From IMG/VR virus record IMGVR_UViG_2851949629_000002: DNA of 51,843 nucleotides, one strand, 5' to 3'. Source of the DNA: a virus. Lineage: Duplodnaviria > Heunggongvirae > Uroviricota > Caudoviricetes. Numbering within the stretch: the stretch's first letter is position 1; every line of letters begins with the position of its first letter. Positions 10,451 to 51,843 of this stretch are shown here, in pieces. Under the pieces are notes generated by a model. The model saw only the letters and a list, made by a program, of their open reading frames with translations, searched no databases and was not told the origin of the DNA. The translations under genes and the position numbers were made by a program.

Positions 10451-11091
10451 TTGTCGGTGTACCTCTCTCGTTTGCTCAGTTGTTCAGGAATATGGTGCAG
10501 CAGCTCGCCGTCGCCGCAGTAAATTGCGGCGTGATTCGGCACTGATGAACCAAAACAGCACAGCAGCACATCGCCCGGCTGTGCCGCTGACAACGGCACC
10601 TGATACAGCCCCGTCGCCTCCAGATTATCCAGATAGAGATTCTGGCCGTTACGCCACCAGTCATCCTCACGATGAAAATCTGGCATCTCAATTCCCGCCA
10701 GATGGTAAGCGTCCCGGAACAGCGTGTAACAGTCCGTCACCCCGTGCTCAAAGCGCCGCCCGGTGAGATGCGGCACACAGCGGAACTTATGAATCGCCCC
10801 GCGGCAGACCAGCCACCACGACAAATCACTCTGCACCTGCAGCCGCCGGTCGGCCTCACTCAGCCAGGGCAGACCACCGGGGTGGCTGTGGACCAGCGCC
10901 ACAATCTCACCCTGCATCTCTGCCTGCAGCCAGTCCTCCGGAGCCATCCGGAAATACTCCTCCGGCTCACCGGAGATATTCACGCAGGGAAAATATCTTT
11001 CCCCCTCCGGCGTGCTTACCACGAAGCCGCACGACTCCGCTGGCGCACATCGCCGGGCGTGCGCCAGAATCGCTGATTCTGTCTGTGTCAT
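10348..11091 (-). CDS. K: Tail tip assembly protein K (MPN/JAMM + NlpC/P60)
   Basis: ORF MTQTESAILAHARRCAPAESCGFVVSTPEGERYF..., lambda K as recalled; true start may be internal. Confidence 0.85.
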   Translation of the reverse strand: MTQTESAILAHARRCAPAESCGFVVSTPEGERYFPCVNISGEPEEYFRMAPEDWLQAEMQGEIVALVHSHPGGLPWLSEADRRLQVQSDLSWWLVCRGAIHKFRCVPHLTGRRFEHGVTDCYTLFRDAYHLAGIEMPDFHREDDWWRNGQNLYLDNLEATGLYQVPLSAAQPGDVLLCCFGSSVPNHAAIYCGDGELLHHIPEQLSKRERYTDKWQRRTHSLWRHRAWRASAFTGIYNDLVAASTFV

Positions 11092-11096
11092 GGGAT

Positions 11097-11771
11097 TTAC
11101 TGCGAAAGTTTGTTAATGGAAAGGAAGCCGCCAAAGTTGCCGACGTTATTGCGAAACTTACAGCCGCTCAGGCATTTGCTGCATTTATCCTTCGTGATAT
11201 CGGAGGTCGGCTGGTCATATTCATCCGCGACCGCCGGACCGTGATAACCGCACTCATCACCGCGATAGGTCCAGGTGCAGGTATTAGCCAGCATGATGCG
11301 CCCCGGAAAAACGGCACCATCCGTTTCCGTCGGTGTGGACAACACAAAGGAGGCACTGACCGCACTCAGTTCGCTGCACTGCTCTATGCGCCAGCGGCTG
11401 ATCACCTCCTGCTCCGGATCGGCGTCGCTGTTTCCGTTGACGAAGTTCACCGCATCCAGAAAACGGGCGCTGAACTCAACACGCAACATACTGACCCGCG
11501 ACGACCATTTTGCGCAGGTCACCTTTATCTGCCGCCACTCATAAGGCGGCGTCCACAGAAAGGATTTCCAGCCCCCGTGCTCTTCCAGAAACGACTCCAG
11601 CGCCGTGGCCTCCTCACGGGAGACAGACAGCGTCACGCTGTACGTTTTCAGGTCAGCGTTCAGCCCGGCAGGCGCACGCTGGGAATAGCCATCACCAAAG
11701 CGCACCTCCCTGACGGAAGGAGCCGATGTCACATCCATCCCGGGTTTCACTTTCCAGCGGAAGGTTTTCAT
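11097..11771 (-). CDS. Fused tail protein: N-terminal ~103 aa of gpM joined in frame to C-terminal ~120 aa of gpL (apparent 353-bp deletion)
   Basis: 224-aa ORF; starts MKTFRWKVKPGMDV (gpM) and ends ...CSKCLSGCKFRNNVGNFGGFLSINKLSQ (gpL); H-to-K spacing is 675 bp versus ~1028 bp expected for separate M and L. Confidence 0.7.
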   Translation of the reverse strand: MKTFRWKVKPGMDVTSAPSVREVRFGDGYSQRAPAGLNADLKTYSVTLSVSREEATALESFLEEHGGWKSFLWTPPYEWRQIKVTCAKWSSRVSMLRVEFSARFLDAVNFVNGNSDADPEQEVISRWRIEQCSELSAVSASFVLSTPTETDGAVFPGRIMLANTCTWTYRGDECGYHGPAVADEYDQPTSDITKDKCSKCLSGCKFRNNVGNFGGFLSINKLSQ

Positions 11772-14329
11772 CGTCCACCTCCGGAGAACAGACCACCATC
11801 GCGCATCTGTGCCTGGATTTCATCACGGGCACCCTTGCGGGCCATGTCATACACTGCCTTCAGAGCAGCCGGACCTATCTGCCCGTTCGTGCCGTCGTTG
11901 TTAATCACCACATGGTTATTCTGCTCAAACGTCCCGGACGCCTGCGACCGGCTGTCTGCCATGCTGCCCGGTGTACCGACATAACCGCCGGTGGCATAGC
12001 CGCGCATCAGCCGGTAAAGATTCCCCACGCCAATCCGGCTGGTTGCCTCCTTCGTGAAGACAAATTCACCACGATGAACAATCCCCGCTGGCTCATATTT
12101 GCCGCCGGTTCCCGTAAATCCTCCGGTCGCAAAATGGAATTTCGCCGCAGCTGCCTGAATGGCTGTACCGCCTGACGCTGATGCTCCACCACTGGCAGCA
12201 CCGCCAATGGCGCTGCCGATACTCCCGACAATCCCCACCATTGCCTGCTTAAGCAGAATTTCTGTCATCATGGACAGCACGGAACGGGTGAAGCTGCGCC
12301 AGTTCTGCTCACTGCCGGTCAGCATCGCCGCCATATTCTGCGCAATACCATCAAAGGTCTGCGCGGCTGCACTTTTAACCTGCGACATACTGTCCGTGGC
12401 GCTCTCTTCCCACTCACTCCAGCCGGACTTCAGGCCTGCCATCCAGCTCCCGCGAAGCTGGTCTTCAGCCGCCCAGGTCTTTTTCTGCTCTGACATGACG
12501 TTATTCAGCGCCAGAGGATTATCGCCATACTGTTCCTTCAGGCGCTGTTCTGTGGCTTCCCGCGCTGCCTGCCGGTCAGTCAGCCCCCGGCTTTTCGCAT
12601 CAATGGCGGCCCGTTTTGCCCGTTGCTGCTGTGCGAATTTATCCGCCTGCTGCGCCAGCGCGTTCAGGCGCTCCTGATACGTAACCTTGTCGCCAAGTGC
12701 AGCCAGCTGGCGTTTGTACTCCAGCGTCTCATCTTTATGCGCCAGCAGGGATTTCTCCTGTGCAGACAGCTGGCGACGTTGCGCCGCCTCCTCCAGTACC
12801 GCGAACTGACTCTCCGCCTTCCACAAATCCCGGCGCTGCTGGCTGATTTTCTCATTTGCTCCGGCATGCTTCTCCAGCGTCCGGAGTTCAGCCTGAAGCG
12901 TCAGCAGGGCAGCATGAGCACTGTCTTCCTGACGATCGCCCGCAGACACCTTCACGCCGGACTGTTTCGGCTTTTTCAGCGTCGCTTCATAGTCCTTTTT
13001 CGCCGCCGCCATCAGCGTGTTGTAATCTGCCTGCAGAATTTTCCCGTCCTTCAGTGCCTTGTTCAGTTCTTCCTGACGGGCGGTATATTTCTCCAGCGGC
13101 GTCTGCAGCCGTTCGTAAGCCTTCTGCGCCTCTTCGGTATATTTCAGCCGTGACGCTTCAGTATCGCTCTGCTGCTGCGCATTTGTGTCCTGTTGACTCT
13201 GCTGTTCAGCCTTCTTTCTCGCGGCTTCAAGCGCAAGACGGGCCTTTTCACGATCATCCCAGTAACGCGCCCGCGCTTCATCGTTAACAAAATAATCATC
13301 CTTGCGCAGACTCCAGATGTCGTCCGCTTTCTTAAACGCAGCCTCTGCCTTAATCAGCATCTCCTGCGCGGTATCAGGACGACCAATATCCAGCACCGCA
13401 TCCCACATGGATTTGAATGCCCGCGCTGTCCTGTCTGCCCAGGTCTCCAGCGTACCCATGTTCTCTTTCAGGCGGCGGGTCTGGTCATCAAACCCTTTCG
13501 TCGCGGCCTCGTTCGCCGCCTGCAATGCCCCGGCTTCATCGCCGGAACGCTGCAACTGAGCAACATACGCAATCTGCTCCGCCGTCACGTTATGGAACTG
13601 ACGTGCCATCGCTGTCAGTCCCGACGTCGGGTCTGTGGTCAGCTTCCCGAAGGCTTCAGCGACCTTGTCCACCTCCACGCCGGATGCAGAGGAGAAACGC
13701 GCCACACTCTGGCTGATCGCCTCAAACTGCTCACCACCACGCACACCGGCATTCACCAGCGCCGTCAGTGACTCGCTGGTCTGGTTAAACGTCAGCCCTG
13801 CCGCCTGCCCGGCTCTGGACAGGGCCAGAATACGATCTGCCGTCAGTCCCGACTGATTGCCGGAAAGGACCAGCGTTTTGTTGAAATCGGACAGGGTTGA
13901 GTTGCCCTGATACCAGGCATACGCCAGCGCACCAGTCGCCACCGCCAGCGAGGTGGCCCCCACCATCGGCAGGGTGATCGCACCGGCAAGCCCCCTGAAC
14001 ATGGGGATCATCCCGCCGAAGGAGTCCTTAACCTGACCACCCTGTTGCAGCAGGATCAGCCACGGACTTTGCCCGCCTGCAAGCTGCGTGGCCACGTCGG
14101 TGAACTGTGCAGGCAGCATACGCATGGCGGCTTTATACTGCCCGACGGAAATCCCCGCTTTCTGTGCAGCCAGCGCCTGTCGGCTCAGCGACTGTTCAAC
14201 GACTGCCGCTGTTTTTTTCGCATCACTTTCCGTACCGGAAAAATGACGCCTGACTCTGGCCATCTGCTCGTCAAATCTGGCCGCATCCAGACTTAAATCA
14301 ACGACCAGATCGCCTACCGGTTCAGCCAT
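11768..14329 (-). CDS. H: Tail tape measure protein H
   Basis: 853-aa ORF, same length and context as lambda gpH. Confidence 0.9.
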   Translation of the reverse strand: MAEPVGDLVVDLSLDAARFDEQMARVRRHFSGTESDAKKTAAVVEQSLSRQALAAQKAGISVGQYKAAMRMLPAQFTDVATQLAGGQSPWLILLQQGGQVKDSFGGMIPMFRGLAGAITLPMVGATSLAVATGALAYAWYQGNSTLSDFNKTLVLSGNQSGLTADRILALSRAGQAAGLTFNQTSESLTALVNAGVRGGEQFEAISQSVARFSSASGVEVDKVAEAFGKLTTDPTSGLTAMARQFHNVTAEQIAYVAQLQRSGDEAGALQAANEAATKGFDDQTRRLKENMGTLETWADRTARAFKSMWDAVLDIGRPDTAQEMLIKAEAAFKKADDIWSLRKDDYFVNDEARARYWDDREKARLALEAARKKAEQQSQQDTNAQQQSDTEASRLKYTEEAQKAYERLQTPLEKYTARQEELNKALKDGKILQADYNTLMAAAKKDYEATLKKPKQSGVKVSAGDRQEDSAHAALLTLQAELRTLEKHAGANEKISQQRRDLWKAESQFAVLEEAAQRRQLSAQEKSLLAHKDETLEYKRQLAALGDKVTYQERLNALAQQADKFAQQQRAKRAAIDAKSRGLTDRQAAREATEQRLKEQYGDNPLALNNVMSEQKKTWAAEDQLRGSWMAGLKSGWSEWEESATDSMSQVKSAAAQTFDGIAQNMAAMLTGSEQNWRSFTRSVLSMMTEILLKQAMVGIVGSIGSAIGGAASGGASASGGTAIQAAAAKFHFATGGFTGTGGKYEPAGIVHRGEFVFTKEATSRIGVGNLYRLMRGYATGGYVGTPGSMADSRSQASGTFEQNNHVVINNDGTNGQIGPAALKAVYDMARKGARDEIQAQMRDGGLFSGGGR

Positions 14330-26444: not shown

Positions 26445-26969
26445 TTAATAGCCATCAGAAGTAATCGCTACAGATTTCAATCCCTCAATGTCATCCTTGG
26501 ACAGGGCGAACCATTCACCGTGCTTTCTCTTTGCGGCAAATTTGCGATGAAGCATGTTTTCAGTTTCTCTTCCACCAGGGATCAGGCACTCAAGCTTCAA
26601 GCAGTCTGGTCCAGAGTTGCCAAGCGATTTGATGCGTTGTGGAATGTTGGATGAATACCCAATTTTGGTTAGCCCAGTTTTCTTCGATGACAAAACGTAT
26701 ACCTGAGGAGGTTCTTTTCTCTGGTCTTCCATTACACGTCTCATTGTTGCCATAAGTCCGCCGTGCATCAGCATTTCAACAAAGAACGCTGACCGAACAC
26801 CTGACGACTTAAGCATGCCAGAAAATTCACTTGCCAATTCCATTAACTCTGCGATGTTTTCAGGAACTTTTTGGCAGTTATCTTCCTTGTATAAGGAAAT
26901 CATTCTTTGAAGCTTTTCTTCTAATTGGTTCATAGCGTCTTTACCTTTTAGAAAGTGAGCCTGTCTCAC
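26445..26969 (-). CDS. T5orf172 (GIY-YIG-like) domain protein, moron
   Basis: 174-aa ORF; C-terminal VYVLSSKKTGLTKIGYSSNIPQRIKSLG...ENMLHRKFAAKRKHGEWFAL fits the T5orf172/MUG113 motif pattern as I recall it; sits where lambda carries bor. Confidence 0.55.
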   Translation of the reverse strand: MRQAHFLKGKDAMNQLEEKLQRMISLYKEDNCQKVPENIAELMELASEFSGMLKSSGVRSAFFVEMLMHGGLMATMRRVMEDQRKEPPQVYVLSSKKTGLTKIGYSSNIPQRIKSLGNSGPDCLKLECLIPGGRETENMLHRKFAAKRKHGEWFALSKDDIEGLKSVAITSDGY

Positions 26970-28306: not shown

Positions 28307-28878
28307 AACCCCACCTCGCAGACAAAGCGGGTGTAAATTGAGGGAATACTACGAAACGTAACAGACTCGGAGTCAGTGAATAACTCAGGTATTGGGTTAT
28401 CAGCTAATATCGAGACTCAAAAAATGGAAAAACCCGCTCGACGGCGGGTTTAAGCTGTGTGACGAAGTAACCACTCTTAACAGCATAACCAATTTTTTAC
28501 GTACGTAAACCACTAAATGATATTTGCGAGAATGCTACCGAGTATTGAAAACACCACTACAAATACATAAGCAAATCTCAACAAATAACCAACAAATAAT
28601 TTCCAGTGTTATTTTTAGCCGGTTTAAATTGAACCTTCAAATTATAGAGCACTTATAAATAACAGCCGTTAATATAAATTGGCTAATAGATTTATTTTTA
28701 TTCAGCCAAGAGCCATGAATAGGATTCGATAGAAAAAAGTTCAGATAAAAATAGAGATCTACTTCACAAATCAAACGAGAAACCAAAACTTACATCTTGA
28801 AATAATCACATTGATTAGATGAATATTTATCGCGCAGTGACATCATTTTTTAATAATAGTTCAAAAAAAGGGCTCACG

Positions 28879-29976
28879 ATGAAAAAATTAACAGTGGCAA
28901 TTTCTGCTGTAGCTGCATCAGTACTGATGGCGATGTCTGCTCAGGCAGCTGAAATTTATAATAAAGACAGTAACAAGCTGGATCTGTACGGGAAAGTTAA
29001 TGCTAAGCACTATTTCTCCTCTAATGATGCAGATGATGGTGATACTACTTATGCCCGTCTTGGCTTCAAAGGTGAAACCCAAATCAACGATCAACTGACT
29101 GGTTTCGGTCAGTGGGAATATGAATTCAAAGGCAACCGCGCTGAATCTCAAGGTTCCTCCAAAGATAAAACCCGTCTTGCCTTCGCTGGCCTGAAATTCG
29201 GTGACTACGGCTCCATCGATTACGGCCGTAACTACGGTGTAGCATACGACATCGGTGCGTGGACTGACGTCCTGCCAGAATTCGGTGGTGACACTTGGAC
29301 TCAAACCGACGTGTTCATGACTCAACGTGCAACTGGTGTTGCAACCTATCGTAACAACGACTTCTTTGGTCTGGTTGATGGTCTGAATTTTGCTGCTCAG
29401 TACCAAGGCAAAAACGATCGTAGCGATTTCGATAACTACACTGAAGGTAACGGTGATGGCTTCGGTTTCTCTGCTACCTATGAATACGAAGGATTCGGTA
29501 TCGGTGCAACTTATGCGAAATCTGATCGTACCGACACTCAAGTTAATGCAGGGAAAGTTCTTCCTGAAGTATTTGCTTCCGGTAAAAATGCAGAAGTTTG
29601 GGCCGCAGGTCTGAAATATGACGCTAACAACATTTACCTGGCCACTACCTATTCTGAAACCCAGAATATGACTGTATTTGCTGATCACTTCGTTGCTAAT
29701 AAAGCCCAAAACTTCGAAGCTGTTGCACAATATCAGTTCGATTTCGGTCTGCGTCCGTCCGTTGCTTACCTGCAATCTAAAGGTAAGGATCTTGGAGTAT
29801 GGGGCGATCAGGACTTAGTCAAATATGTTGATGTAGGTGCAACCTATTACTTCAACAAAAATATGTCTACTTTCGTTGATTACAAAATCAACCTGCTTGA
29901 CAAAAATGACTTCACTAAAGCACTCGGTGTAAGCACTGATGACATCGTTGCTGTAGGTCTGGTTTACCAGTTCTAA
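28879..29976 (+). CDS. OmpC-family porin (Lc/NmpC-like), lysogenic-conversion gene
   Basis: Track ORF starts at 28819; likely start is [23 protein letters not shown] signal peptide; 16-strand porin motifs, ends YQF. Confidence 0.85.
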
Positions 29977-30165: not shown

Positions 30166-30564
30166 TTAATTAGAGTTATTAACAACGATATCCATCTCTA
30201 ACCGGATATCTAATGCCATTAACATCCCTTCAATTATACCCTCAGCCTTCTGTAACCTTTTCCCGATATAACCATCAGAGCAGCAATGCTTACCTGCCAG
30301 TGACATGAATGTCATACCGACTACATAATAATCTACTAATAAATCGTGCAAATCGCTGTTGTTCTTTTTCAGACGGGCCATGCACCCGCAAATGATCATC
30401 GCGTCATCGTCACAACATTGCGGGCGAGATTTTACTTTTGAAGTAATTAATCCCTTAAAACCGGCGGCAATGGACGACCAGGTCACATCTTCATGATTAT
30501 TAGCCGCCCACGCTCCCCAACGCTCAAGAACCATCTGAATATCACGCATCAACTTACTCCACAA
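30166..30564 (-). CDS. Q: Late antiterminator Q (phage 21/DLP12 QuuD-type)
   Basis: Contains [34 protein letters not shown]..., DLP12 QuuD as recalled; true start may be the internal Met (~30549). Confidence 0.8.
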
Positions 30565-33186: not shown

Positions 33187-33884
33187 ACACTTGCTCCTTT
33201 CAGTCCGAACTTAGCTTTGATTTCTGCGATCTTCGCCAGAGCCTGTGCACGATTTAGAGGTCTACCGCCCATGACAGGAAGTTGTTTTACTGGTTCAGGG
33301 ATCGCCTCACCACGGTTAATTCTCGCAGTCATATGGACAAGCTCATCTGCGGCCTTACGGCGTAATTCCGCATCAGTAAGCGCATTGGCCCGCATGTTCT
33401 GATACAGGTTGGTAACCAGCCAGTAGTGCGCGTTTGATTTCCACGGATAAGACTCCGCATCCGGATACAGGCCTCGCTTCCGGCAATACTCGTAAACCAT
33501 ATCAACCAGCTCGCTGACGTTTGGCAGTCCGGCGATAACGGATGCTTCTTCCCGGCACCATGCAACAAACTGCCCGGGTGATGGCAGAAATGGTCGATTC
33601 TGCCGACGGGCTACGCGCATTCCTGCGTTAACCTGTTCCATTGTGGTGATCCCGTTTTCCCGGAAAGCCAGCACCCACTGGCGGCGGATTTCGTTCAGTT
33701 CGTTCTGGTCCCGGTTAGCCAGGCTCGCCGGGAAAGTTGCCAGTAACTGGCTGAACACACCATTGATGATCTGCGCTACCTGTTGTACCTGCGGCTTTTC
33801 GTCGTACTGTTCCGGCATGTTGTTGGCGATCCGACGCATCTGCTCACGGTCAAAGTTAACCATCTGTGCGGCGATGTTTTTCAT
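33183..33884 (-). CDS. P: Replication protein P (DnaB helicase loader)
   Basis: 233-aa MKNIAAQMVNFDREQMRRIANNMPEQYDEKPQVQQVAQIINGVF..., lambda P. Confidence 0.9.
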   Translation of the reverse strand: MKNIAAQMVNFDREQMRRIANNMPEQYDEKPQVQQVAQIINGVFSQLLATFPASLANRDQNELNEIRRQWVLAFRENGITTMEQVNAGMRVARRQNRPFLPSPGQFVAWCREEASVIAGLPNVSELVDMVYEYCRKRGLYPDAESYPWKSNAHYWLVTNLYQNMRANALTDAELRRKAADELVHMTARINRGEAIPEPVKQLPVMGGRPLNRAQALAKIAEIKAKFGLKGASV

Positions 33885-34336
33885 AAATCCACCCCGTAAA
33901 TCCAGTCAGTGTTTGTCAGGTCGAGTTTTGGTTTGCTGGCTGTCACGCCTGCCTGTTGCTTGTTACGGTTGATTTCGAGCTGGGTCCACTTGTCGCGGAG
34001 TTTGGCCGGACTCAGCACGTTACCGGACCAGAAGTTGTCCTGGCAGGCCCAGCGGAAAAGCACACACATATCGCGGTGGTTACGTCCGTCACGTTCACGC
34101 ATCAGGCGGATATCGTTAGCCCACCCAGCAAAATTCGGTTTTCTGGCTGATGGTGCGATAGTCTTCACCATGTCAAACATCCACTCTGCGGCGGTCAGGT
34201 CTTCTGCTGTCCCCCACTTGCTGCCGCTCTGAATTGCAGCATCCGGTTTCACCACAGAAAGGTCGTTTTCTGGCTGGTCAGAGGATTCGCCAGAATTCTC
34301 TGACGAATAATCTTTTCTTTTTTCTTTTGTAATAGT
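33881..34336 (-). pseudogene. O: Replication initiator O, C-terminal fragment, cut by IS insertion
   Basis: Encodes ...MVKPDAAIQSGSKWGTAEDLTAAEWMFDMVKTIAPSARKPNF... up to the IS boundary; adjacent ori AT-rich element. Confidence 0.85.
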
Positions 34337-34366
34337 GTAAGCGTCAACGGAGCACCGTATTGACGC

Positions 34367-35720
34367 TTATTTATTAGTGAGTACTACGTTCCATGGCAGG
34401 AGTTCGTCAACTCGGTTGGAAGGCCATTCCGGCAGTACGCTCAGGATATGGCGCAGATACGCTTCCGGATCGATACCATTCAACCGGCAGGTGCCGATCA
34501 GCCCGTACAACAGTGCACCACGCTCGCCGCCGTGATCGCTACCGAAGAACACGTAATTTTTCTTTCCGAGACAGACTGCACGAAGCGCTCTTTCCGCTGT
34601 GTTATTGTCCGCCTCCGCCAGACCGTCATCACAGAAGTTGCACAACGCAACCCAGTGCTTCCTGATATACCGGAACGCATCTCTCAGACGGCATTTTTTC
34701 GATAACGTGTGTTCTTTCTCCTGCATCAGCTTATACAGGGAAGTCAGTAGCGGTTTACTCTGCATTTGCCTGACCGCCAGGCGTTCAGACACCGGCAACC
34801 CGCGTATTTCGTGCTCAATGGCGTACAGTTCACTGATTCGCTTCAGGGCTTCTTCTGCCGTCGCACTTTTGCTGCTGATGTATACATCGTGGATTTTTCG
34901 CCGGGCATGGGCCCAGCACGCAACTTCTGTCAGTGCACCACCTTCACGTTCTGCACTGAACAACCTGTCGTAACCTGTGAACGCATCTGCCTGCAGGATA
35001 CCCCGGAAGGGACGAAGGTGTTGCTCCGGATGTTTACCCTGATGGTCCGGTGAGTAGGCGAACCAGACCGCCGGAGGTTCTGGCGAACCGGCATTTCGGT
35101 CATCCCGGACATACGTCCAGATATATCCTGTTTTCGCCTTCTTCCTGCCCGGTGCCAGTACTTTTACTGGTGTGTCATCAGTGTGAACCTTGCGGGTGTT
35201 CATCACATAACTGTACAGGGCATCATTCAGCGGAGTCATTAACTGGCAGCACGCATCAACCCAGTTGGAGAGTAAGGCACGGCTCAGTTCGACACCCTGG
35301 CGGGCAAAGATTTCACTCTGACGATACAGTGGCAGGTGTTCGCAGTATTTTCCCGTTAACACGCGGGCAAGTAACCCCGGGCCCGCGATACCACGCTCTA
35401 TCGGACGGGATGGTGCCGGTGCTTCAACGATGCAGTCACATTTTGTACAGGCTTTTTTTACCCGTTCTGTGCGGATCACTTTCAGGGCGCTGCTCACCAG
35501 CTCCAGTTGTTCTGCGCTGACTTCCCCCAGATAATCCAGCTCACCGCCACACTCCGGGCAACAGCTTTCTTCTGGCTCCAGGCGGTATATTTCACGGGGG
35601 AGATGTGCCGGTAACGGACGACAATGGCGCGACTGTCGCAACTGGCGGGGAACCAGCGGGTCATCCTCACGCCCACTGTAACGATCGCTTTCCTGCTCGC
35701 GTTGTTTCAGCAGGACTTCA
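34367..35720 (-). pseudogene. Outer IS66 transposase TnpC, C-terminal ~440 codons, separated from its N-terminus by the inner IS
   Basis: ORF continues ...LLKQREQESDRYSG upstream to the inner-IS junction; ~90% similar to the intact inner TnpC. Confidence 0.8.
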
Positions 35721-35813
35721 GCCTGTTCGTAAGCGTAAACTGACCGCCGTATGTAGCCATCAGACGAGAATTGGTAACTTAGACGCCCATCTGATATAGA
35801 CGGACATCTAAGT

Positions 35814-36239
35814 ATGGAATTACAGGACTGGCGAAAAGAACCTCGTAAAAACTATTCGAATGAATTCAAACTTCGTATGGTGGAACTGGCATCACAACCT
35901 GGAGCTTGTGTTGCACAGATTGCACGTGAAAATGGCGTCAATGATAATGTTATTTTCAAATGGCTCAGGCTCTGGCAGAACGAAGGGCGTGTTTCGCGGC
36001 GTCTTCCGGTAACGACCTCTTCTGACACTGGCGTTGAATTATTACCTGTAGAAATAACGCCGGATGAGCAGAAAGAACCTGTGGCGGCCATTGCGCCGTC
36101 TTTATCCACTTCCACTCAGACCAGAGTCAGTGCCAGTTCCTGCAAGGTGGAATTCCGTCACGGTAACATGACGCTGGAAAATCCATCGCCAGAGCTGCTC
36201 ACAGTGTTGATCCGTGAACTGACCGGGAGGGGAAGATGA
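35814..36239 (+). CDS. IS66 accessory protein OrfA (TnpA)
   Basis: 141-aa ORF, first gene of the IS66 three-gene arrangement. Confidence 0.8.
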   Translation: MELQDWRKEPRKNYSNEFKLRMVELASQPGACVAQIARENGVNDNVIFKWLRLWQNEGRVSRRLPVTTSSDTGVELLPVEITPDEQKEPVAAIAPSLSTSTQTRVSASSCKVEFRHGNMTLENPSPELLTVLIRELTGRGR

Positions 36240-36586
36240 TCTCACTCCCATCAGGTACCCGTATCTGGCTCGTTGCCGGCGTTACCGATATGCGTAAATC
36301 CTTCAACGGACTGGGAGAACAGGTACAACATGTGCTGAATGATAATCCCTTCTCCGGTCACCTGTTTATCTTCCGTGGCCGACGGGGTGACACCGTCAAA
36401 ATTCTTTGGGCTGATGCTGATGGTCTGTGCCTGTTCACCAAACGCCTGGAGGAAGGCCAGTTTATCTGGCCTGCGGTACGTGACGGCAAGGTATCCATTA
36501 CCCGCTCGCAACTGGCAATGCTCCTCGATAAGCTGGACTGGCGTCAGCCAAAAACATCCAGCCGTAACTCACTGACAATGTTGTAA
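36236..36586 (+). CDS. IS66 accessory protein OrfB (TnpB)
   Basis: 116-aa ORF MISLPSGTRIWLVAGVTDMRKSFNGLGEQ... overlapping orfA stop. Confidence 0.85.
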   Translation: MISLPSGTRIWLVAGVTDMRKSFNGLGEQVQHVLNDNPFSGHLFIFRGRRGDTVKILWADADGLCLFTKRLEEGQFIWPAVRDGKVSITRSQLAMLLDKLDWRQPKTSSRNSLTML

Positions 36587-36616
36587 AAAACTCCTGACCG
36601 CATTATAAAAACGGTC

Positions 36617-38230
36617 ATGAGTCAGAAATACCTCATTCGCATCGCAGAGCTGGAAAGGTTGCTCTCTGAGCAGGCTGAAGCCCTCCGTCAGAAAGACCAG
36701 CAACTGAGTCTGGTTGAAGAGACGGAAGCCTTCCTGCGCTCTGCACTGACACGTGCCGAAGAAAAGATCGAAGAAGATGAACGGGAAATAGAACATCTGC
36801 GGGCTCAGATAGAAAAACTGCGCCGGATGCTGTTCGGTACCCGTTCTGAAAAACTGCGTCGTGAAGTTGAACTGGCTGAGGCTCTGCTGAAACAACGTGA
36901 ACAGGACAGCGATCGTTACAGTGGGCGGGAAGACGATCCTCAGGTTCCCCGCCAGTTGCGACAGTCGCGCCATCGTCGTCCGTTACCGGCACACCTTCCC
37001 CGTGAAATACACCGCCTGGAGCCAGAAGAAAGCTGTTGCCCGGAGTGTGGCGGTGAGCTGGATTATCTGGGGGAAGTCAGCGCTGAACAGCTGGAACTGG
37101 TGAGCAGTGCCCTGAAAGTGATCCGCACAGAACGGGTAAAAAAAGCCTGTACAAAATGTGACTGTATTGTTGAAGCACCGGCGCCGTCCCGCCCGATAGA
37201 GCGTGGTATCGCGGGCCCCGGATTACTTGCCCGCGTGTTAACGGGAAAATACTGCGAACATCTGCCACTGTATCGTCAGAGTGAAATCTTTGCCCGCCAG
37301 GGTGTCGAACTGAGCCGGGCCTTACTCTCCAACTGGGTTGACGCGTGCTGCCAGTTAATGACACCGGTGAATGATGCCCTGTACCGTTATGTAATGAACA
37401 CCCGCAAGGTTCACACTGATGACACACCGGTAAAGGTACTGGCACCGGGTCAGAAAAAGGCGAAAACAGGGCGTATCTGGACGTATGTCCGGGATGATCG
37501 CAATGTGGGTTCGTCATCTCCTCCAGCGGTCTGGTTCGCGTACTCGCCGAACCGGCAGGGGAAACACCCGGAGCAACACCTCCGCCCCTTCCGGGGTATC
37601 CTGCAGGCGGATGCGTTCACAGGTTACGACAGGTTGTTCAGTGCAGAACGTGAAGGTGGTGCACTGACAGAAGTTGCGTGCTGGGCCCATGCCCGGCGAA
37701 AAATCCACGATGTATACATCAGCAGCAAAAGTGCGACGGCAGAAGAAGCCCTGAAGCGAATCAGTGAACTGTACGCCATCGAGGATGAAATACGGGGATT
37801 ACCGGAGTCAGAGCGTCTTGCCGTCAGGCAGCAGCGAAGCAAAGTGTTACTGACGTCGCTGCATGAATGGATGGTGGAGAAGAATGGTACGCTGTCGAAA
37901 AAATCCAGACTGGGCGAAGCGTTCAGCTATGTACTGAATCAGTGGGATGCCCTCTGTTATTACAGTGATGACGGTCTGGCGGAGGCGGATAATAATGCTG
38001 CGGAAAGAGCGCTTCGTGCAGTCTGTCTCGGAAAGAAAAACTTTATGTTCTTCGGCAGCGATCACGGCGGCGAGCGAGGAGCACTGTTGTACGGGCTGAT
38101 CAGCACCTGCCGACTGAACGGTATCGATCCGGAAGCGTATCTGCGCCATATCCTGAGCGTACTGCCGGAATGGCCTTCCAACCGAGTTGACGAACTCCTG
38201 CCATGGAACGTAGTACTCACCAATAAATAA
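36617..38230 (+). CDS. IS66 transposase TnpC
   Basis: 537-aa ORF with N-terminal coiled-coil, CxxC zinc motifs and DDE-type core. Confidence 0.85.
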   Translation: MSQKYLIRIAELERLLSEQAEALRQKDQQLSLVEETEAFLRSALTRAEEKIEEDEREIEHLRAQIEKLRRMLFGTRSEKLRREVELAEALLKQREQDSDRYSGREDDPQVPRQLRQSRHRRPLPAHLPREIHRLEPEESCCPECGGELDYLGEVSAEQLELVSSALKVIRTERVKKACTKCDCIVEAPAPSRPIERGIAGPGLLARVLTGKYCEHLPLYRQSEIFARQGVELSRALLSNWVDACCQLMTPVNDALYRYVMNTRKVHTDDTPVKVLAPGQKKAKTGRIWTYVRDDRNVGSSSPPAVWFAYSPNRQGKHPEQHLRPFRGILQADAFTGYDRLFSAEREGGALTEVACWAHARRKIHDVYISSKSATAEEALKRISELYAIEDEIRGLPESERLAVRQQRSKVLLTSLHEWMVEKNGTLSKKSRLGEAFSYVLNQWDALCYYSDDGLAEADNNAAERALRAVCLGKKNFMFFGSDHGGERGALLYGLISTCRLNGIDPEAYLRHILSVLPEWPSNRVDELLPWNVVLTNK

Positions 38231-38256
38231 GCGTCAATACGGCACTCCGTTAACGC

Positions 38257-38520
38257 TTACGCCTGTTCAACCTCACTACGCAGTTTTTCAGAACGGGTTC
38301 CGAACAGCATCCGGCGCAGTTTTTCTATCTGAGCCCGCAGATGCTCTATTTCTCGCTCATCTTCTTCGATCTTTTCTTCGGCACGTGCCAGTGCAGAGCG
38401 CAGGAAGGCCTCCGTCTCTTCAACCAGACTCAGTTGCTGGTCTTTCTGACGGAGGGCTTCAGCCTGCTCAGAGAGCAGCCTTTCCAGCTCAGCGATGCGA
38501 ATGAGGTATTTCTGACCCAT
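38257..38520 (-). pseudogene. Outer IS66 TnpC N-terminal fragment (87 codons)
   Basis: MGQKYLIRIAELERLLSEQAEALRQKDQQL... ends at the inner IS junction. Confidence 0.8.
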
Positions 38521-38550
38521 GGCCGTTTTTATAATCCGGCCCGGCGTTTT

Positions 38551-38901
38551 TTACAACATTGTCAGTGCGTTAAGGCGGGATGTTTTTGGCTGACGCCAGT
38601 CCAGCTTATCGAGGAGCATTGCCAGTTGCGAGCGGGTAATGGATATCTTACCGTCATGCACCGCAGGCCAGATAAACTGACCTTCCTCAAGGCGTTTGGT
38701 GAACAGGCACAGACCATCAGCATCAGCCCACAGGATTTTAATCGTGTCTCCCCGTCGGCCACGGAAGATAAACAGGTGACCGGAGAAGGGGTTATCATCC
38801 AGCACATGCTGTATCTGCTCCCCCAGACCGTTGAAGGATTTACGCATATCAGTAACGCCGGCAACGAGCCAGATACGGGTACCTGATGGGAGTGAAATCA
38901 T
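38551..38901 (-). CDS. Outer IS66 OrfB (TnpB)
   Basis: 116-aa ORF ~90% similar to the inner orfB. Confidence 0.8.
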   Translation of the reverse strand: MISLPSGTRIWLVAGVTDMRKSFNGLGEQIQHVLDDNPFSGHLFIFRGRRGDTIKILWADADGLCLFTKRLEEGQFIWPAVHDGKISITRSQLAMLLDKLDWRQPKTSRLNALTML

Positions 38902-39335
38902 CGTCCCCTCCCGGTCAGCTCACGGATCAACACCGTGAGCAGCTCTGGTGAAGGATTTTCCAGCATCATTTTACCGTAATGGAATTCCACATGGCAGGAA
39001 GCTGCACAAGCAACTGATAATGCCTCCGGAGCAGGAGCATCTGTAGCACAGCGCGGGGTGTCGATAAGTTCCACTGGAACCAGAGTCGGAGAGGCCGGAA
39101 AAGATTGTGATACTGTAGGGCCTACAATAGTTGGAGGCATTCTACGAGAAATACGTCCTTCTCTTTGCCAGAGGCGTAGCCATTTAAAAATCAGGTTGTT
39201 ATCAACGCCATGTTCCCGGGCCAGTTGTGCAACATTGGCATTTGGTTTCGAAGCCAGTTCAACCATATGAAGTTTAAATTCATTAGAAAATATCCGGCGG
39301 GTTCCGGAGCGCCAGTCTGTAGGTTTATCCATCAA
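38898..39335 (-). CDS. Outer IS66 OrfA (TnpA)
   Basis: 145-aa ORF, diverged homologue of the inner orfA. Confidence 0.75.
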   Translation of the reverse strand: MMDKPTDWRSGTRRIFSNEFKLHMVELASKPNANVAQLAREHGVDNNLIFKWLRLWQREGRISRRMPPTIVGPTVSQSFPASPTLVPVELIDTPRCATDAPAPEALSVACAASCHVEFHYGKMMLENPSPELLTVLIRELTGRGR

Positions 39336-39415
39336 TAGAACTCCGTCTAATTTAGAAGGAGCTCTAATTTAGTCTGCAAGGAGCAAGTGTTACAGACGGC
39401 ATTGGCTTTACGCTT

Positions 39416-39869
39416 ACGTAATAGTGTCTTTTGTGTCCCCCTGTTTTGAGGGATAGCAATCCCCCAATTTGAGGGATGTTTTATCCCTCGTTTTAGGGGA
39501 TTGTCCCTCGTTTTGAGGGATACACCATTCTGAGATGTTTTTATTTGGTCCAAACATGCCGCCTTGCTGCTTGATAATATTCATTCTGACGAGTTCTAAC
39601 TTGGCTTCATTGCACCGTTTGACAGGTAACTTTGTAATCTCGCTAAGTTGAGAATCGGTGATTCTGTCCATTGGTTTATTCCACCCATAGGTTTTACGCA
39701 GAATGGCAAGCAGCACTTTAAACTGTCGCTTGGTCAGATCTGCGCCCGAATAAGCCTCAAGCAGCATATTTGATAGTCTGGCGTAACCATCATCGAGATC
39801 TGCCACATTACGCTCCTGTCCGGCAAAGTTACCTCTGCCGAAGTTGAGTATTTTTGCTGTATTTGTCAT
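39416..39869 (-). pseudogene. O: Replication initiator O, N-terminal fragment
   Basis: MTNTAKILNFGRGNFAGQERNVADLDDGYARLSNMLLEAYSGADLTKRQF..., lambda O N-terminus; reading frame runs into the IS. Confidence 0.85.
39436..39521. repeat. ori-lambda iterons (four ~18-bp O-binding repeats)
   Basis: Four copies of TCCCTC-N6-GAGGGA-like inverted units inside the O N-terminal coding region. Confidence 0.8.
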
Positions 39870-39901
39870 AATGACTCCTGTTGATAGATCCAGTAATGAC
39901 C

Positions 39902-40195
39902 TCAGAACTCCATCTGGATTTGTTCAGAACGCTCGGTTGCCGCCGGGCGTTTTTTATTGGTGAGAATCGCAGCAACTTGTCGCGCCAATCGAGCCATGTC
40001 GTCGTCAACGACCCCCCATTCAAGAACAGCAAGCAGCATTGAGAACTTGGGAATCCAGTCTCTCTTCCACCTGCTGATCTGCGACTTATCAACTCCCACA
40101 GCTTCCGCTGTCTTCTCAGTTCCAAGCATTGCGATTTTGTTAAGCAACGCACTCTCGATTCGTAGTGCCTCGTTGCGTTTGTTTGCACGAACCAT
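39902..40195 (-). CDS. cII: Transcriptional activator cII
   Basis: MVRANKRNEALRIESALLNKIAMLGTEKTAEAVGVDKSQISRWKRDWIPKF..., lambda cII (track ORF has an upstream extension). Confidence 0.9.
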   Translation of the reverse strand: MVRANKRNEALRIESALLNKIAMLGTEKTAEAVGVDKSQISRWKRDWIPKFSMLLAVLEWGVVDDDMARLARQVAAILTNKKRPAATERSEQIQMEF

Positions 40196-41455: not shown

Positions 41456-42313
41456 ATGAAGAAAGCAGCAATTTTAATTGATGCGGGTTTTTTCATGCAG
41501 CGTGTTCATGCTACGCATCGTAAACACTTCGCCGAGCATGAACTGACTGCGCAATGCATAATGAAAGTAATATGGTCAATGGTTCTTTCCCATCTTAATG
41601 GAAAACGTCAATCACAAGAACGTAGGGAACCGCTTGAGCTTTATAGAATTTACTTCTATGACTGTCCACCACTCGACATTCAAACACGCCTTCCACTTCC
41701 TGAGCCTGGCAATAAGACGCCTGGTCGCAAGAATTTCAAACTCGAAAAATCATATATTCTGAGAACGGAGCTGCATGAAGAGTTAAGAAAAACTCGAAAA
41801 ACAGCCTTAAGATTAGGGAATCTTGTTGATAATAAGCGATGGCAACTAACTACATTCTCCCTTGATGCTCTGATGAAAGGAACGAAAAAATGGGATGAAC
41901 TGACAAATGATGATTTTTACTATGACATCAAACAAAAACAAGTTGATATCAAGCTAGGGATGGATATCACGACTTTAGCTTATGAAAAACTTGTTGATGT
42001 AATTGTCCTTGTTGCTGGGGACTCAGACTTTGTGCCTGCCGCCAAACACGCCAGAATTAAAGGTATTGATTTTATTCTTGATCCACTAAGACAGAATGTT
42101 ACCCCATCACTGTCAGAGCACATTGATGGAGTTCAGTCATACAGCTTGATATCAGGACTTGCCGATGCTTTACATGTTGAGCCAGACCCGGCACCTGACT
42201 GGTGGGAAGATCGAAAAAAAGGCAAGCCTAGAGGAAAAAACAATAGCGGTAAACGCAGGTATGGAAACACTCAAGCTGAGTCTGCAAAGAAACATCAAAG
42301 AAATAAACGATAA
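41456..42313 (+). CDS. NYN/LabA-like (PIN-fold) predicted ribonuclease with basic C-terminal tail, in the slot lambda uses for rexA-rexB
   Basis: 285-aa ORF; motifs AILIDAGFF, VDIKLGMDI, VLVAGDSDFVPAAKHARIKGIDFILDP; Lys/Arg-rich last ~35 aa; not RexA or RexB. Confidence 0.6.
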   Translation: MKKAAILIDAGFFMQRVHATHRKHFAEHELTAQCIMKVIWSMVLSHLNGKRQSQERREPLELYRIYFYDCPPLDIQTRLPLPEPGNKTPGRKNFKLEKSYILRTELHEELRKTRKTALRLGNLVDNKRWQLTTFSLDALMKGTKKWDELTNDDFYYDIKQKQVDIKLGMDITTLAYEKLVDVIVLVAGDSDFVPAAKHARIKGIDFILDPLRQNVTPSLSEHIDGVQSYSLISGLADALHVEPDPAPDWWEDRKKGKPRGKNNSGKRRYGNTQAESAKKHQRNKR

Positions 42314-50425: not shown

Positions 50426-50535
50426 TGATTTTATTTTGACTGATAGTGACCTGTTCGTTGCAACAAATTGATAAGCAATGCTTTTTTATAATGCCAACTT
50501 AGTATAAAAAAGCAGGCTTCAACGGATTCATTTTT
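50426..50535. other. attL: Prophage attL (P' arm, 15-bp core at 50499-50513, bacterial B arm)
   Basis: Reverse complement contains GCCTGCTTTTTTATACTAAGTTGGCATTATAAAAAAGCATTGCTTATCAATTTGTTGCAACGAACAGGTCACTATCAGTCAAAATAAAATCATTATT, i.e. lambda core GCTTTTTTATACTAA with P' arm. Confidence 0.85.
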
Positions 50536-50559
50536 CTATTTCATAGCCCGGAGCAACCT

Positions 50560-51843
50560 GTGAACACATTTTCAGTTTCCCGTCTGGCGCTGGCATTGGC
50601 TTTTGGCGTGACGCTGACCGCCTGTAGCTCAACCCCGCCCGATCAACGTCCTTCTGATCAAACCGCGCCTGGTACCTCTTCTCGCCCGATTCTGTCGGCA
50701 AAAGAAGCGCAGAATTTCGATGCTCAACACTATTTTGCATCCCTGACACCAGGTGCTGCAGCGTGGAATCCTTCCCCGATTACCCTGCCTGCGCAACCTG
50801 ACTTTGTTGTCGGCCCGGCGGGCACTCAAGGTGTAACGCATACCACGATTCAGGCGGCGGTAGATGCGGCAATTATCAAGCGTACCAACAAGCGCCAGTA
50901 TATTGCCGTGATGCCTGGTGAGTATCAGGGAACGGTATATGTCCCTGCCGCTCCGGGTGGAATTACTCTGTACGGTACAGGTGAAAAACCGATTGATGTG
51001 AAGATTGGGCTTTCCCTTGATGGTGGCATGAGCCCTGCCGACTGGCGTCACGACGTCAACCCGCGCGGCAAATATATGCCAGGTAAACCAGCGTGGTATA
51101 TGTACGATAGCTGCCAGAGCAAACGCAGCGACAGTATCGGTGTTCTCTGCTCTGCGGTCTTCTGGTCACAAAACAATGGCCTGCAACTGCAAAATCTGAC
51201 CATCGAAAACACGCTGGGCGATAGCGTAGATGCAGGTAACCATCCGGCGGTGGCACTGCGTACTGATGGTGACCAGGTACAGATTAACAACGTTAACATT
51301 CTCGGTCGTCAGAACACCTTCTTTGTCACCAACAGCGGTGTGCAGAACCGTCTGGAAACGAATCGTCAGCCGCGTACGCTGGTGACCAACAGCTACATTG
51401 AAGGGGATGTGGATATCGTTTCTGGTCGCGGCGCAGTGGTGTTCGATAACACCGAATTCCGCGTGGTGAACTCACGTACTCAGCAAGAAGCGTATGTGTT
51501 TGCACCGGCTACGCTGTCCAACATTTACTACGGTTTCCTCGCCGTAAACAGCCGTTTCAATGCTTTCGGTGATGGTGTGGCGCAACTGGGCCGCTCGCTG
51601 GATGTTGATGCCAATACCAACGGTCAGGTGGTGATCCGTGATAGCGCCATCAACGAAGGTTTTAACACGGCTAAACCGTGGGCCGATGCGGTGATCTCTA
51701 ATCGTCCGTTTGCGGGTAATACCGGCAGCGTAGATGATAACGACGAAATACAGCGCAATCTGAATGACACTAACTACAACCGCATGTGGGAATACAATAA
51801 CCGCGGCGTGGGTAGTAAAGTGGTTGCAGAGGCGAAGAAGTAA
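50560..51843 (+). CDS. ybhC: Host lipoprotein YbhC (pectinesterase-fold acyl-CoA thioesterase), chromosomal flank of att-lambda
   Basis: 427-aa ORF with lipoprotein signal MNTFSVSRLALALAFGVTLTAC, matches E. coli YbhC as recalled. Confidence 0.9.
   Translation: MNTFSVSRLALALAFGVTLTACSSTPPDQRPSDQTAPGTSSRPILSAKEAQNFDAQHYFASLTPGAAAWNPSPITLPAQPDFVVGPAGTQGVTHTTIQAAVDAAIIKRTNKRQYIAVMPGEYQGTVYVPAAPGGITLYGTGEKPIDVKIGLSLDGGMSPADWRHDVNPRGKYMPGKPAWYMYDSCQSKRSDSIGVLCSAVFWSQNNGLQLQNLTIENTLGDSVDAGNHPAVALRTDGDQVQINNVNILGRQNTFFVTNSGVQNRLETNRQPRTLVTNSYIEGDVDIVSGRGAVVFDNTEFRVVNSRTQQEAYVFAPATLSNIYYGFLAVNSRFNAFGDGVAQLGRSLDVDANTNGQVVIRDSAINEGFNTAKPWADAVISNRPFAGNTGSVDDNDEIQRNLNDTNYNRMWEYNNRGVGSKVVAEAKK

Follow-up and report, generated by a model that had tools for sequence, protein, structure and literature searches.

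Nested IS66-family insertions in gene O and ori-lambda of a lambda-like prophage

The window, the whole 51,843-nt stretch of DNA that was analysed (IMG/VR record IMGVR_UViG_2851949629_000002), carries two IS66-family elements, one inserted within the other, at the O gene and replication origin of a prophage (Table 1). It is very likely that a lambda-like prophage was hit in O/ori by an ISEc43-like element and that ISEc23 then inserted into the tnpC gene of that element; two sequential insertions at the O locus are the simplest reading of the arrangement. The whole window is colinear with lambda, and the prophage appears to occupy the canonical attB beside ybhC, with ybhC and the attL core at 50513-51843. 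The genes cI, cro, cII, P, N, int and xis are intact. A second lesion was found in the tail genes, in the form of an M-L fusion deletion; thus, loss of replication would not be the sole defect of this prophage. Its accessory genes include a porin and a NYN-domain gene in the rex position.

Table 1. Coordinates of the interrupted O/ori-lambda region and of the two nested elements
Feature	Position in window	Strand	Basis or remark
3' fragment of lambda-type O, codons 149-299 including duplicated target	33881..34336	-	colinear with lambda 39130-39585
Main part of ori-lambda AT-rich unwinding tract	34306..34328		lambda 39138-39160, 87% A+T
Outer-IS target-site duplication copy 1, GTAATAGT	34329..34336		lambda 39130-39137
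Outer element, right-hand (IRR) part: tnpC codons ~85-537 (zf-IS66, DDE domains), right terminal repeat	34337..35728	-	
Inner-IS target-site duplication copy 1, GCCTGTTC	35721..35728		outer-IS nt 1150-1157, as GAACAGGC
Intact ISEc23, 2532 bp, imperfect terminal repeats beginning GTAAGCG	35729..38260	+	identity, domains, ORFs
ISEc23 tnpA	35814-36239	+	
ISEc23 tnpB	36236-36586	+	
ISEc23 tnpC	36617-38230	+	
Outer tnpC 5' stub, 87 codons	38257-38520	-	spans inner duplication copy 2 (38261-38268)
Inner-IS target-site duplication copy 2, GCCTGTTC	38261..38268		sequence match
Outer element, left-hand (IRL) part: left terminal repeat, tnpA, tnpB, tnpC 5' stub	38269..39417	-	
Outer tnpB	38551-38901	-	
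Outer tnpA	38898-39332	-	
Truncated O gene, residues 1-151 exactly	39414..39869	-	ORF and junction sequence
Outer-IS target-site duplication copy 2, GTAATAGT	39418..39425		sequence match, lambda comparison
O-binding iterons ITN4 to ITN1 of ori-lambda	39437..39521		39437-39454, 39460-39477, 39484-39501 and 39504-39521; each identical to lambda annotation

Identity and structure of the two elements

Both elements have the three consecutive genes tnpA-tnpB-tnpC of the IS66 family. Domain searches with Pfam detected HTH_Tnp_1, TnpB_IS66 (E = 1e-36) and DDE_Tnp_IS66 (E = 1e-95 to 1e-98), with zf-IS66, LZ_Tnp_IS66 and DDE_Tnp_IS66_C also present in TnpC of both elements, and the NCBIfam model transpos_IS66 scored 452 bits against a cut-off of 180. 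For the outer element, tnpC was scanned as the version repaired in silico, and tnpB was assigned not by domain scan but because it is 116 aa long and closely resembles the inner tnpB. Imperfect terminal inverted repeats beginning 5'-GTAAGCG are a feature of the family in ISfinder. All four IS ends in the window start GTAAGCGT, and the terminal repeats agree at ~17-22 of the first 30-40 positions. An exact 8-bp direct repeat borders each element on both sides, GTAATAGT for the outer and GCCTGTTC for the inner; an exact 8-mer would arise by chance at a fixed position with a probability of 1.5e-5 per duplication pair. The two flanks of the outer element are the only places in the 51.8-kb window at which GTAATAGT occurs.

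The outer element is ISEc43-like and lies on the minus strand, with termini reading GTAAGCG... at 34337 and ...CGCTTAC at 39417. Its tnpC is interrupted at codon ~85 by the inner ISEc23, and the remaining 5' stub ends at a TAA stop within the inner IS terminus. Removal in silico of the inner IS and one duplication copy yielded an element of 2541 bp with open tnpA (144 aa), tnpB (116 aa) and tnpC (537 aa). This repaired element matched intact copies annotated ISEc43 by NCBI PGAP at 98.8% over 2541 bp in one ungapped alignment, near-identity at the isoform level, and was ~1.2% divergent from every copy in the complete-genome set. The name ISEc43 is taken from the PGAP naming of these closest copies ('ISEc43 family'). 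The three-gene organisation is common to ISEc43 and the outer copy, which differs in its interrupted tnpC. As it stands, the outer IS no longer has a transposase of its own and would be mobile only with TnpC from a sister copy.

The inner element encodes proteins of 141 aa (tnpA), 116 aa (tnpB) and 537 aa (tnpC) and is intact. A copy in E. coli TW10690, whose transposase is called 'IS66-like element ISEc23 family' by PGAP, matches it at 100% identity across all 2532 bp. This identity to a PGAP-named copy assigns it to ISEc23 at the isoform level, from which it shows no difference except its location within another IS. At the right terminal repeat it departs slightly from the version that is commoner among IMG/VR copies. 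Activity of these elements in transposition is suggested by their intact ORFs and ends and by the presence of identical copies elsewhere.

These results bear out most of what a sequence-only reading had proposed for the elements. Membership of both in the IS66 family agrees with the domains, GTAAGCG termini and 8-bp duplications; the position of the second IS within tnpC of the first agrees with the junctions, duplications and repaired tnpC; the apparent intactness of the inner element is matched by the TW10690 copy; and the duplications, inexactness of which would have counted against the reading, were both exact. Its figure of ~90% relatedness was an approximation, since the two elements are 85% identical overall, with 91-97% in tnpB and most of tnpC and 46-65% in the first 450 nt. 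Its span of 34329-39415 stops 2 bp short of the IS end and so leaves out the second copy of the duplication.

Effects on gene O and the replication origin

Deletion in silico of 34337-39425, comprising both elements and one duplication copy, restored an uninterrupted O ORF of 900 nt that is colinear with lambda O without gaps. The repaired gene (299 aa) differs from lambda O at 10/900 nt, with one amino-acid change, K123Q. Each of the four iterons matches the lambda annotation exactly, and the AT tract is identical to that of lambda after excision, which returns the components of a lambda-type replication module: a colinear O, four 18-bp iterons and an adjacent in-gene AT tract. The repaired P-O-cII-cro block of 2346 bp had one-piece matches at 99.9% in many E. 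coli genomes, in which O is annotated intact. The earlier claim that O had been cut into two fragments was therefore upheld, and alignment of the flanks to lambda O/ori, proposed as a check, found the halves contiguous and free of gaps.

The same repairs bear on whether the join is an assembly artefact, with repeated IS copies giving a chimeric join and O really intact. IS elements are classic break and mis-join points, and a comparable ITN4::IS allele in IMG/VR is split across two contigs. However, a mis-join would produce neither exact 8-bp duplications at both elements nor the perfect frames that excision restores in O and tnpC, and an artefact is extremely unlikely.

The 3' fragment of O was 100% identical to lambda O residues 149-299 by tblastn and has no start codon of its own, except a fortuitous GTG at 34255. 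In the truncated O gene, the IS terminus GTAA completes both codon 151 (ACG, Thr) and the TAA stop that follows it. The Phage_rep_O DNA-binding domain is complete in this fragment (Pfam PF04492, residues 22-115, E = 1.5e-36). Truncated O retains the DNA-binding domain and has lost the linker and the P-binding C-terminal half, a division that rests on Pfam and the literature (PMC6022878); a PDB sequence search for structures related to lambda O returned no match.

The origin ori-lambda corresponds to lambda 39034-39160, with its tract defined as in PMC3349717, and consists of four iterons and an adjacent 38-40-bp AT tract that is opened by O binding (PMC3349717, PMC5043065). The insertion point of the outer IS is lambda 39130-39137, 11 bp beyond iteron 4, which ends at lambda 39118. 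Since the 38-bp high-AT tract is lambda ~39123-39160, the element lies within its first third, just inside the left edge. The first reading, which placed the IS exactly between the iterons and the AT-rich segment, is therefore slightly off. About 15 bp of the tract, the duplicated 8 bp included, remain on the iteron side; the most AT-rich part remains on the O C-terminal side, and the iterons are now 5089 bp from most of the tract.

Lambda genetics provides the basis for reading this prophage as replication-defective. Amber fragments of lambda O that reach 160 or 205 aa are null, the shorter being that of Oam317, and ori95 and ori96, deletions of 12-15 bp inside the AT tract, are ori-minus (PMC6022878, PMC7466680, PMC5043065, PMC4926192). 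Unwinding needs an AT tract adjoining the iterons (PMC6022878, PMC7466680, PMC5043065), and the minimal unwinding unit is two iterons with the adjacent AT tract (PMC7466680). By these precedents, truncation of O at residue 151 and the split origin would render the prophage defective, and theta replication could not start after induction. The defect would act both in trans, with no functional O, and in cis, through the split origin, such that O supplied by a helper would not be expected to rescue it. From pR, expression must now pass through 5 kb of IS DNA to reach P, the nin genes and Q, and is probably reduced. Promoter and terminator scans over 33800-39950 gave counts not above shuffled controls. 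A role of the O(1-151) fragment as an anti-phage decoy was considered and is unlikely because the fragment lies behind the cI-repressed pR and would not be made in the lysogen.

Laboratory lambda mutants (O amber, the ori95/ori96/ori98 deletions and ilr insertions such as P::IS2) carry lesions in these same genes and within this 130-bp origin, and replication-defective survivors with IS or other insertions in O or P have been recovered (PMC6022878, PMC4926192). These mutants and the window allele have the same expected phenotype, no theta replication from ori-lambda. The laboratory mutants were selected as survivors of replicative killing and each has a cis or a trans lesion, whereas the window allele is natural and has both.

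Order and distribution of the insertions

In the proposed sequence of events, the ISEc43-like element would have inserted first, by ordinary DDE transposition with an 8-bp staggered cut in the tract. ISEc23 would then have inserted in the opposite orientation into tnpC of the first element, generating the second 8-bp duplication. That these elements favour targets with an AT-rich core probably accounts for the site chosen.

Searches of 5426 complete E. coli genomes and of GTDB species-representative genomes detected neither the O::IS nor the ISEc43/ISEc23 junction, and the O::IS junction was not found in JGI metagenome contigs. Strain 600029 (H16) has an equally long nested element, which was considered as a second example of the composite but carries ISEc43 within ISEc23, the opposite arrangement, and at another site. 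These searches weigh on arrival in a single step, in which a preformed 5.08-kb ISEc43::ISEc23 composite transposed into O on its ISEc43 ends with TnpC supplied in trans. Such a route accords with the intact outer ends, tnpA and tnpB, with the multicopy state of ISEc43-type elements in many E. coli genomes, and with the recurrence elsewhere of IS66-in-IS66 nesting, by which nested composites do exist. Absence of the IS/IS junction from the complete and species-representative genomes argues against it, as does the expectation that a double-length composite without a cis transposase would move poorly, and we consider it improbable. Two sequential insertions are preferred as the simplest reading.

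Possible origin targeting and selection, and significance

An independent IS66-family insertion, ITN4::ISEc23, was found in IMG genome 2778261269 (loci L057 and L114), 22 bp from the outer-IS site and with the 8-bp duplication CCTGTTTT. This allele, which is known from its two junctions, the contigs ending within the IS, has in common with the window an IS66-family insertion in a lambda-type origin with an 8-bp duplication; it lies inside iteron 4, whereas the insertion in the window lies in the AT tract. The ITN4::IS junction was absent from complete E. coli genomes. IMG/VR gave 111 unique IS-end/flank combinations, in which A+T was 64-78% at positions 2-7 of the duplication and 53% in the flanks. 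The inner target GCCTGTTC has A/T at only 3/6 core positions, and the AT preference is therefore a tendency, not a rule. It is possible, though we suggest it tentatively, that the ITN4/AT-tract edge of ori-lambda is a recurrent target of ISEc23/ISEc43-type elements through a preference for an AT-rich six-base core, perhaps in bent or easily melted DNA.

Repeated insertions at other single sites lend this idea some slight support. The L-K spacer contained an IS66-type insertion twice at the identical 8 bp, and two insertions lay 1 bp apart in the ISEc23 tnpB-tnpC spacer. The latter spacer was considered as a general hot spot for IS66-into-IS66 insertion, but two genomes are too few for this.

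The O/ori allele might have been selected, since a prophage with a dead origin and O would neither kill its host by replication nor be lost lytically on induction and would still provide cI immunity and the accessory genes; this view also holds that ori-lambda disruptions are enriched among natural prophages. Consistent with it, when non-excisable lambda prophages are induced in the laboratory, the survivors have O, P or ori altered by insertion or deletion (PMC6022878, PMC4926192), and at least 5 of 120 lambda-type ori loci in IMG/VR have a lesion within or beside ITN4 or the AT tract: two share a 7-nt deletion, one lacks 1 nt, one has an IS and one a rearrangement. The intact state of cI and the other genes listed above fits as well. 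However, the allele is private, being absent from the 5426 complete genomes with no sign of spread, and the second lesion in tail genes M-L fits neutral decay equally well. Selection is accordingly judged doubtful.

The IS629-disrupted prophages of O157:H7 Sakai are likewise IS-inactivated lambdoid prophages of pathogenic E. coli, in which a resident IS in an essential phage gene left a defective, largely complete prophage. They differ from the window in the IS family involved and in that the window has two related elements, nested.

Both elements and this type of event are already known, and insertion of this kind is an ordinary, well-understood route to loss of prophage replication. The significance is mainly one of annotation: the record should describe the prophage as defective, treat both O fragments as a single pseudogene and label the outer IS a disrupted copy. 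The allele is a tidy natural counterpart of the classical O-minus and ori-minus laboratory mutants of lambda and shows resident IS66-family elements eroding lambdoid prophages. The sole wider lead is a possible bias of ISEc23/ISEc43 toward targets with an AT-rich core, together with the second independent hit in the same origin; if true, IS66-family elements would be a systematic, site-biased route to replication loss in lambda-type prophages.

Prophage layout and the two IS66-family elements

The window was found to hold a lambda-like prophage in reverse orientation. Lambda NC_001416 aligned to it by BLAST in colinear blocks of 94-99% identity over most of the genome, and nearly all lambda proteins were recovered at full length by tblastn. 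The attL core is followed by ybhC, which places the prophage at lambda's canonical attachment site. Its late region does not resemble that of lambda; an OmpC-type porin gene lies between the Q antiterminator and lysis genes, and a T5orf172/MUG113-domain ORF lies beyond Rz. Downstream of cI, the position of rexA-rexB is occupied by a single unrelated ORF in which a NYN nuclease-like domain was weakly detected (Pfam E = 7e-9; PADLOC HEC-09/NYN only E = 2e-4 to 1e-3), and this ORF may represent alternative exclusion or defence cargo.

Features of the prophage and of the nested insertion (window coordinates)
Feature	Position	Strand	Detail
Tail and head genes, cos, lysis/Q region, then P, O, cII, cro		minus	
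cI, N, recombination genes, xis, int		plus	
Fused tail genes M and L	11100-11771	minus	224-aa ORF
T5orf172/MUG113-domain ORF	26445-26969	minus	
OmpC-type porin gene	28819-29976	plus	385 aa
Q antiterminator	30166-30564		
Outer target duplication	34329-34336 and 39418-39425		GTAATAGT, abuts both ends
Outer element	34337-39417	minus	GTAAGCG... to ...CGCTTAC
Inner target duplication	35721-35728 and 38261-38268		GCCTGTTC
Inner element	35729-38260	plus	2532 bp
Stop of outer tnpC stub	38257-38262		GAA CAG GCG TAA
Stop of upstream O frame	39414-39419		ACT ATT ACG TAA
Four ori-lambda iterons	39437-39454, 39460-39477, 39484-39501, 39504-39521		each exactly as annotated in lambda
ORF in the rex position	41456-42313	plus	285 aa
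attL core	about 50500-50513		
ybhC	after attL core		NCBIfam PRK10531, 731 bits

The termini of the outer element were determined by direct reading and by script, and GTAATAGT occurs in the window only as the two copies flanking this element. The inner element is inserted in the opposite orientation at nt 1150-1157 of the outer one, at about codon 85 of tnpC. Removal of the inner element and one duplication copy left an outer element of 2541 bp in which tnpA (144 aa), tnpB (116 aa) and tnpC (537 aa) are all open, and this repaired element matched intact copies annotated by PGAP as ISEc43 family in one piece at 98.8% identity. The inner element showed 100% identity, end to end, with a copy annotated as ISEc23 in strain TW10690. 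Pfam and NCBIfam searches identified the IS66-family domain set in all three inner proteins and IS66-family domains in the outer TnpA and repaired TnpC, the two outer proteins scanned. These data bear out the family assignment of both elements and the intactness of the inner one proposed in the sequence-only reading. That reading was also right that the elements are related and that the outer duplication exists, but its figure of about 90% identity becomes 85% overall (91-97% in tnpB and the greater part of tnpC, 46-65% in the left end and tnpA), and its outer end at 39415 misses the last 2 bp of the IS and lies 10 bp before the end of the second duplication copy.

Disruption of gene O and of ori-lambda

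Excision of 34337-39425 restored a 900-nt ORF that aligned without gaps to lambda O, differing from it at 10 nucleotides and one amino acid (K123Q). The flanking halves are contiguous O/ori sequence, as had been proposed, and the target-site duplications of both elements are exact. With both duplications exact and the reading frame restored in two genes, an assembly chimera is very unlikely. The repaired P-O-cII-cro block (2346 bp) gave a single ungapped match at 99.9% in many E. coli chromosomes, in which O is annotated as intact, and 317 genomes covered at least 80% of it; thus, the empty site is common in nature.

The duplicated target corresponds to lambda 39130-39137, and iteron 4 ends at lambda 39118. 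Ori-lambda has been defined as 39034-39160, comprising four 18-bp iterons and a joined 38-bp high-AT sequence (Hayes et al., PMC3349717), which places the AT tract at about 39123-39160; the AT deletion of the same authors removed lambda 39128-39172 (PMC3349717). The insertion thus lies within the AT tract, close to its left edge. The earlier claim that it falls exactly between the iterons and the AT segment holds for their separation but not for the exact boundary. Downstream of the iterons, 19 bp of native sequence are retained, including the duplicated 8 bp; the richest part of the AT tract (lambda 39138-39160, 87% A+T) is now 5089 bp distant, on the side of the C-terminal O fragment. Beyond these adjustments of coordinates, percent identity and boundary, the original observation was confirmed and its interpretation supported.

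The upstream O frame crosses the duplication into the IS terminus, where codon 151 remains a Thr codon and GTAA of the IS end provides the stop. The product is exactly O residues 1-151, which retains the whole Pfam Phage_rep_O domain (residues 22-115) and lacks the C-terminal half, reported to mediate P binding (PMC6022878). The outer tnpC stub is stopped likewise. In both cases the last codon is finished by the G of the terminus GTAAGCG and the next triplet is TAA, so that translation ends with no foreign residues added; such an immediate stop is expected in one frame in three, and twice by chance in about 1 in 9.

Expected effects and history of the allele

When O binds the iterons on supercoiled DNA, a neighbouring A+T-rich region of 40 bp is opened (PMC5043065), and the minimal unwinding unit is two iterons plus the adjacent AT tract (PMC7466680). 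The Oam317 allele retains 160 N-terminal residues and is null, and ori95 and ori96, deletions of 12 and 15 bp inside the AT tract, are origin-defective (PMC6022878). When lambda fragments are induced, one standard class of replication-defective survivors carries spontaneous O or P insertions, IS2 in P among them (PMC6022878, PMC4926192). On the basis of this work, the O::IS allele should show a trans as well as a cis defect. To reach P, the nin genes and Q, pR transcription would have to pass through 5 kb of IS DNA; a simple scan detected no excess of terminator-like or promoter-like sites.

The simplest history would be insertion of the ISEc43-like element into O, followed by insertion of ISEc23 into the outer tnpC. 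Alternatively, an already formed nested composite may have moved into O in a single step, using TnpC provided in trans; against this, the nested ISEc43/ISEc23 junction was absent from 5426 complete E. coli genomes and from GTDB representatives. The O::IS junction was absent from complete E. coli genomes, GTDB species representatives and JGI metagenome contigs.

The same prophage lacks 350 bp corresponding to lambda 13405-13754. The deletion is clean, has a 3-bp CGC microhomology at its junction and joins tail genes M and L in frame without roughly the first 100 residues of L. It is likely a second inactivating lesion. The O::IS allele may reflect either selection, as an escape from replicative killing, or neutral decay; the M-L deletion fits general decay.

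Origin variants and target preference of the elements

Scanning of IMG/VR for the ISEc23 left end identified a contig (L057) in which an ISEc23-type end (at 3-32) abuts ...CTTTTGTGTCCCCCTGTTTT, from inside iteron 4 of a lambda-type origin. In a partner contig from the same IMG genome, 2778261269 (L114), the other IS end abuts CCTGTTTTGAGGGAT (junction at about 8006). Both contigs end in the IS. This is an independent IS66-family insertion with duplication CCTGTTTT, 22 bp from the window's site, and it was likewise absent from complete E. coli genomes.

At least 120 lambda-type origins from IMG/VR were compared over 272 nt. Among the matches listed, 109 of 120 were uninterrupted, three contigs ended before the full 272 nt and two diverged only 150-210 nt away. 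The remainder included the iteron-4 IS allele just described, one origin that continues into unrelated DNA, two that share a 7-nt deletion, one with a 1-nt deletion and one with an extra iteron (variant loci L147, L163, L068, L157 and L087). The unrelated DNA begins within ITN4; the 7-nt deletion (CTTTTTT) lies in the AT tract, which is thereby shortened, and also throws O out of frame; the 1-nt deletion is in a T run; and a duplicated ITN3-4 unit yields five iterons.

Target preference was assessed in 111 unique, partly redundant IS-end/flank combinations pooled from three IMG/VR scans (L008-L061, L182-L231). Inner positions 2-7 of the 8-bp duplication were 64-78% A+T, compared with about 42% for the two outer positions and 53% for the neighbouring flank. 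This bias provides a simple reason for an IS66-family element landing in the AT tract of the origin. The outer target (G-TAATAG-T) fits it, while the inner target (G-CCTGTT-C) fits less well.

Repeated hits were also observed. The same 8 bp of the L-K spacer (window-equivalent 10972-10979) carries ISEc23 in opposite orientations in two genomes (L034/L218 and L049), with further insertions within about 120 bp (L055, L226, L016); this spacer could be a hot spot or merely a tolerated site. The tnpB-tnpC spacer of ISEc23 has received two insertions 1 bp apart, both inverted, one of ISEc43 (duplication TATAAAAA) and one of ISEc23 (ATAAAAAC); this junction was found in only 2 of 5426 genomes. The repeated hits point in the same direction as the AT-core bias, in samples that are small and partly redundant, and survivorship bias is possible because spacers tolerate insertions. 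Nesting of IS66-family elements thus recurs, in strains 600029 (L002, 3884-6425), EC65 (L005, 1486-4017) and 720632 (L007) and in L048; besides the two spacer insertions, these loci comprise an ISEc43-like element in an ISEc23 tnpC, itself within an IS110 element, and ISEc23 in the tnpB of another ISEc23. The specific O::IS allele appears private to its strain, and all of its components are known elements with known behaviour.
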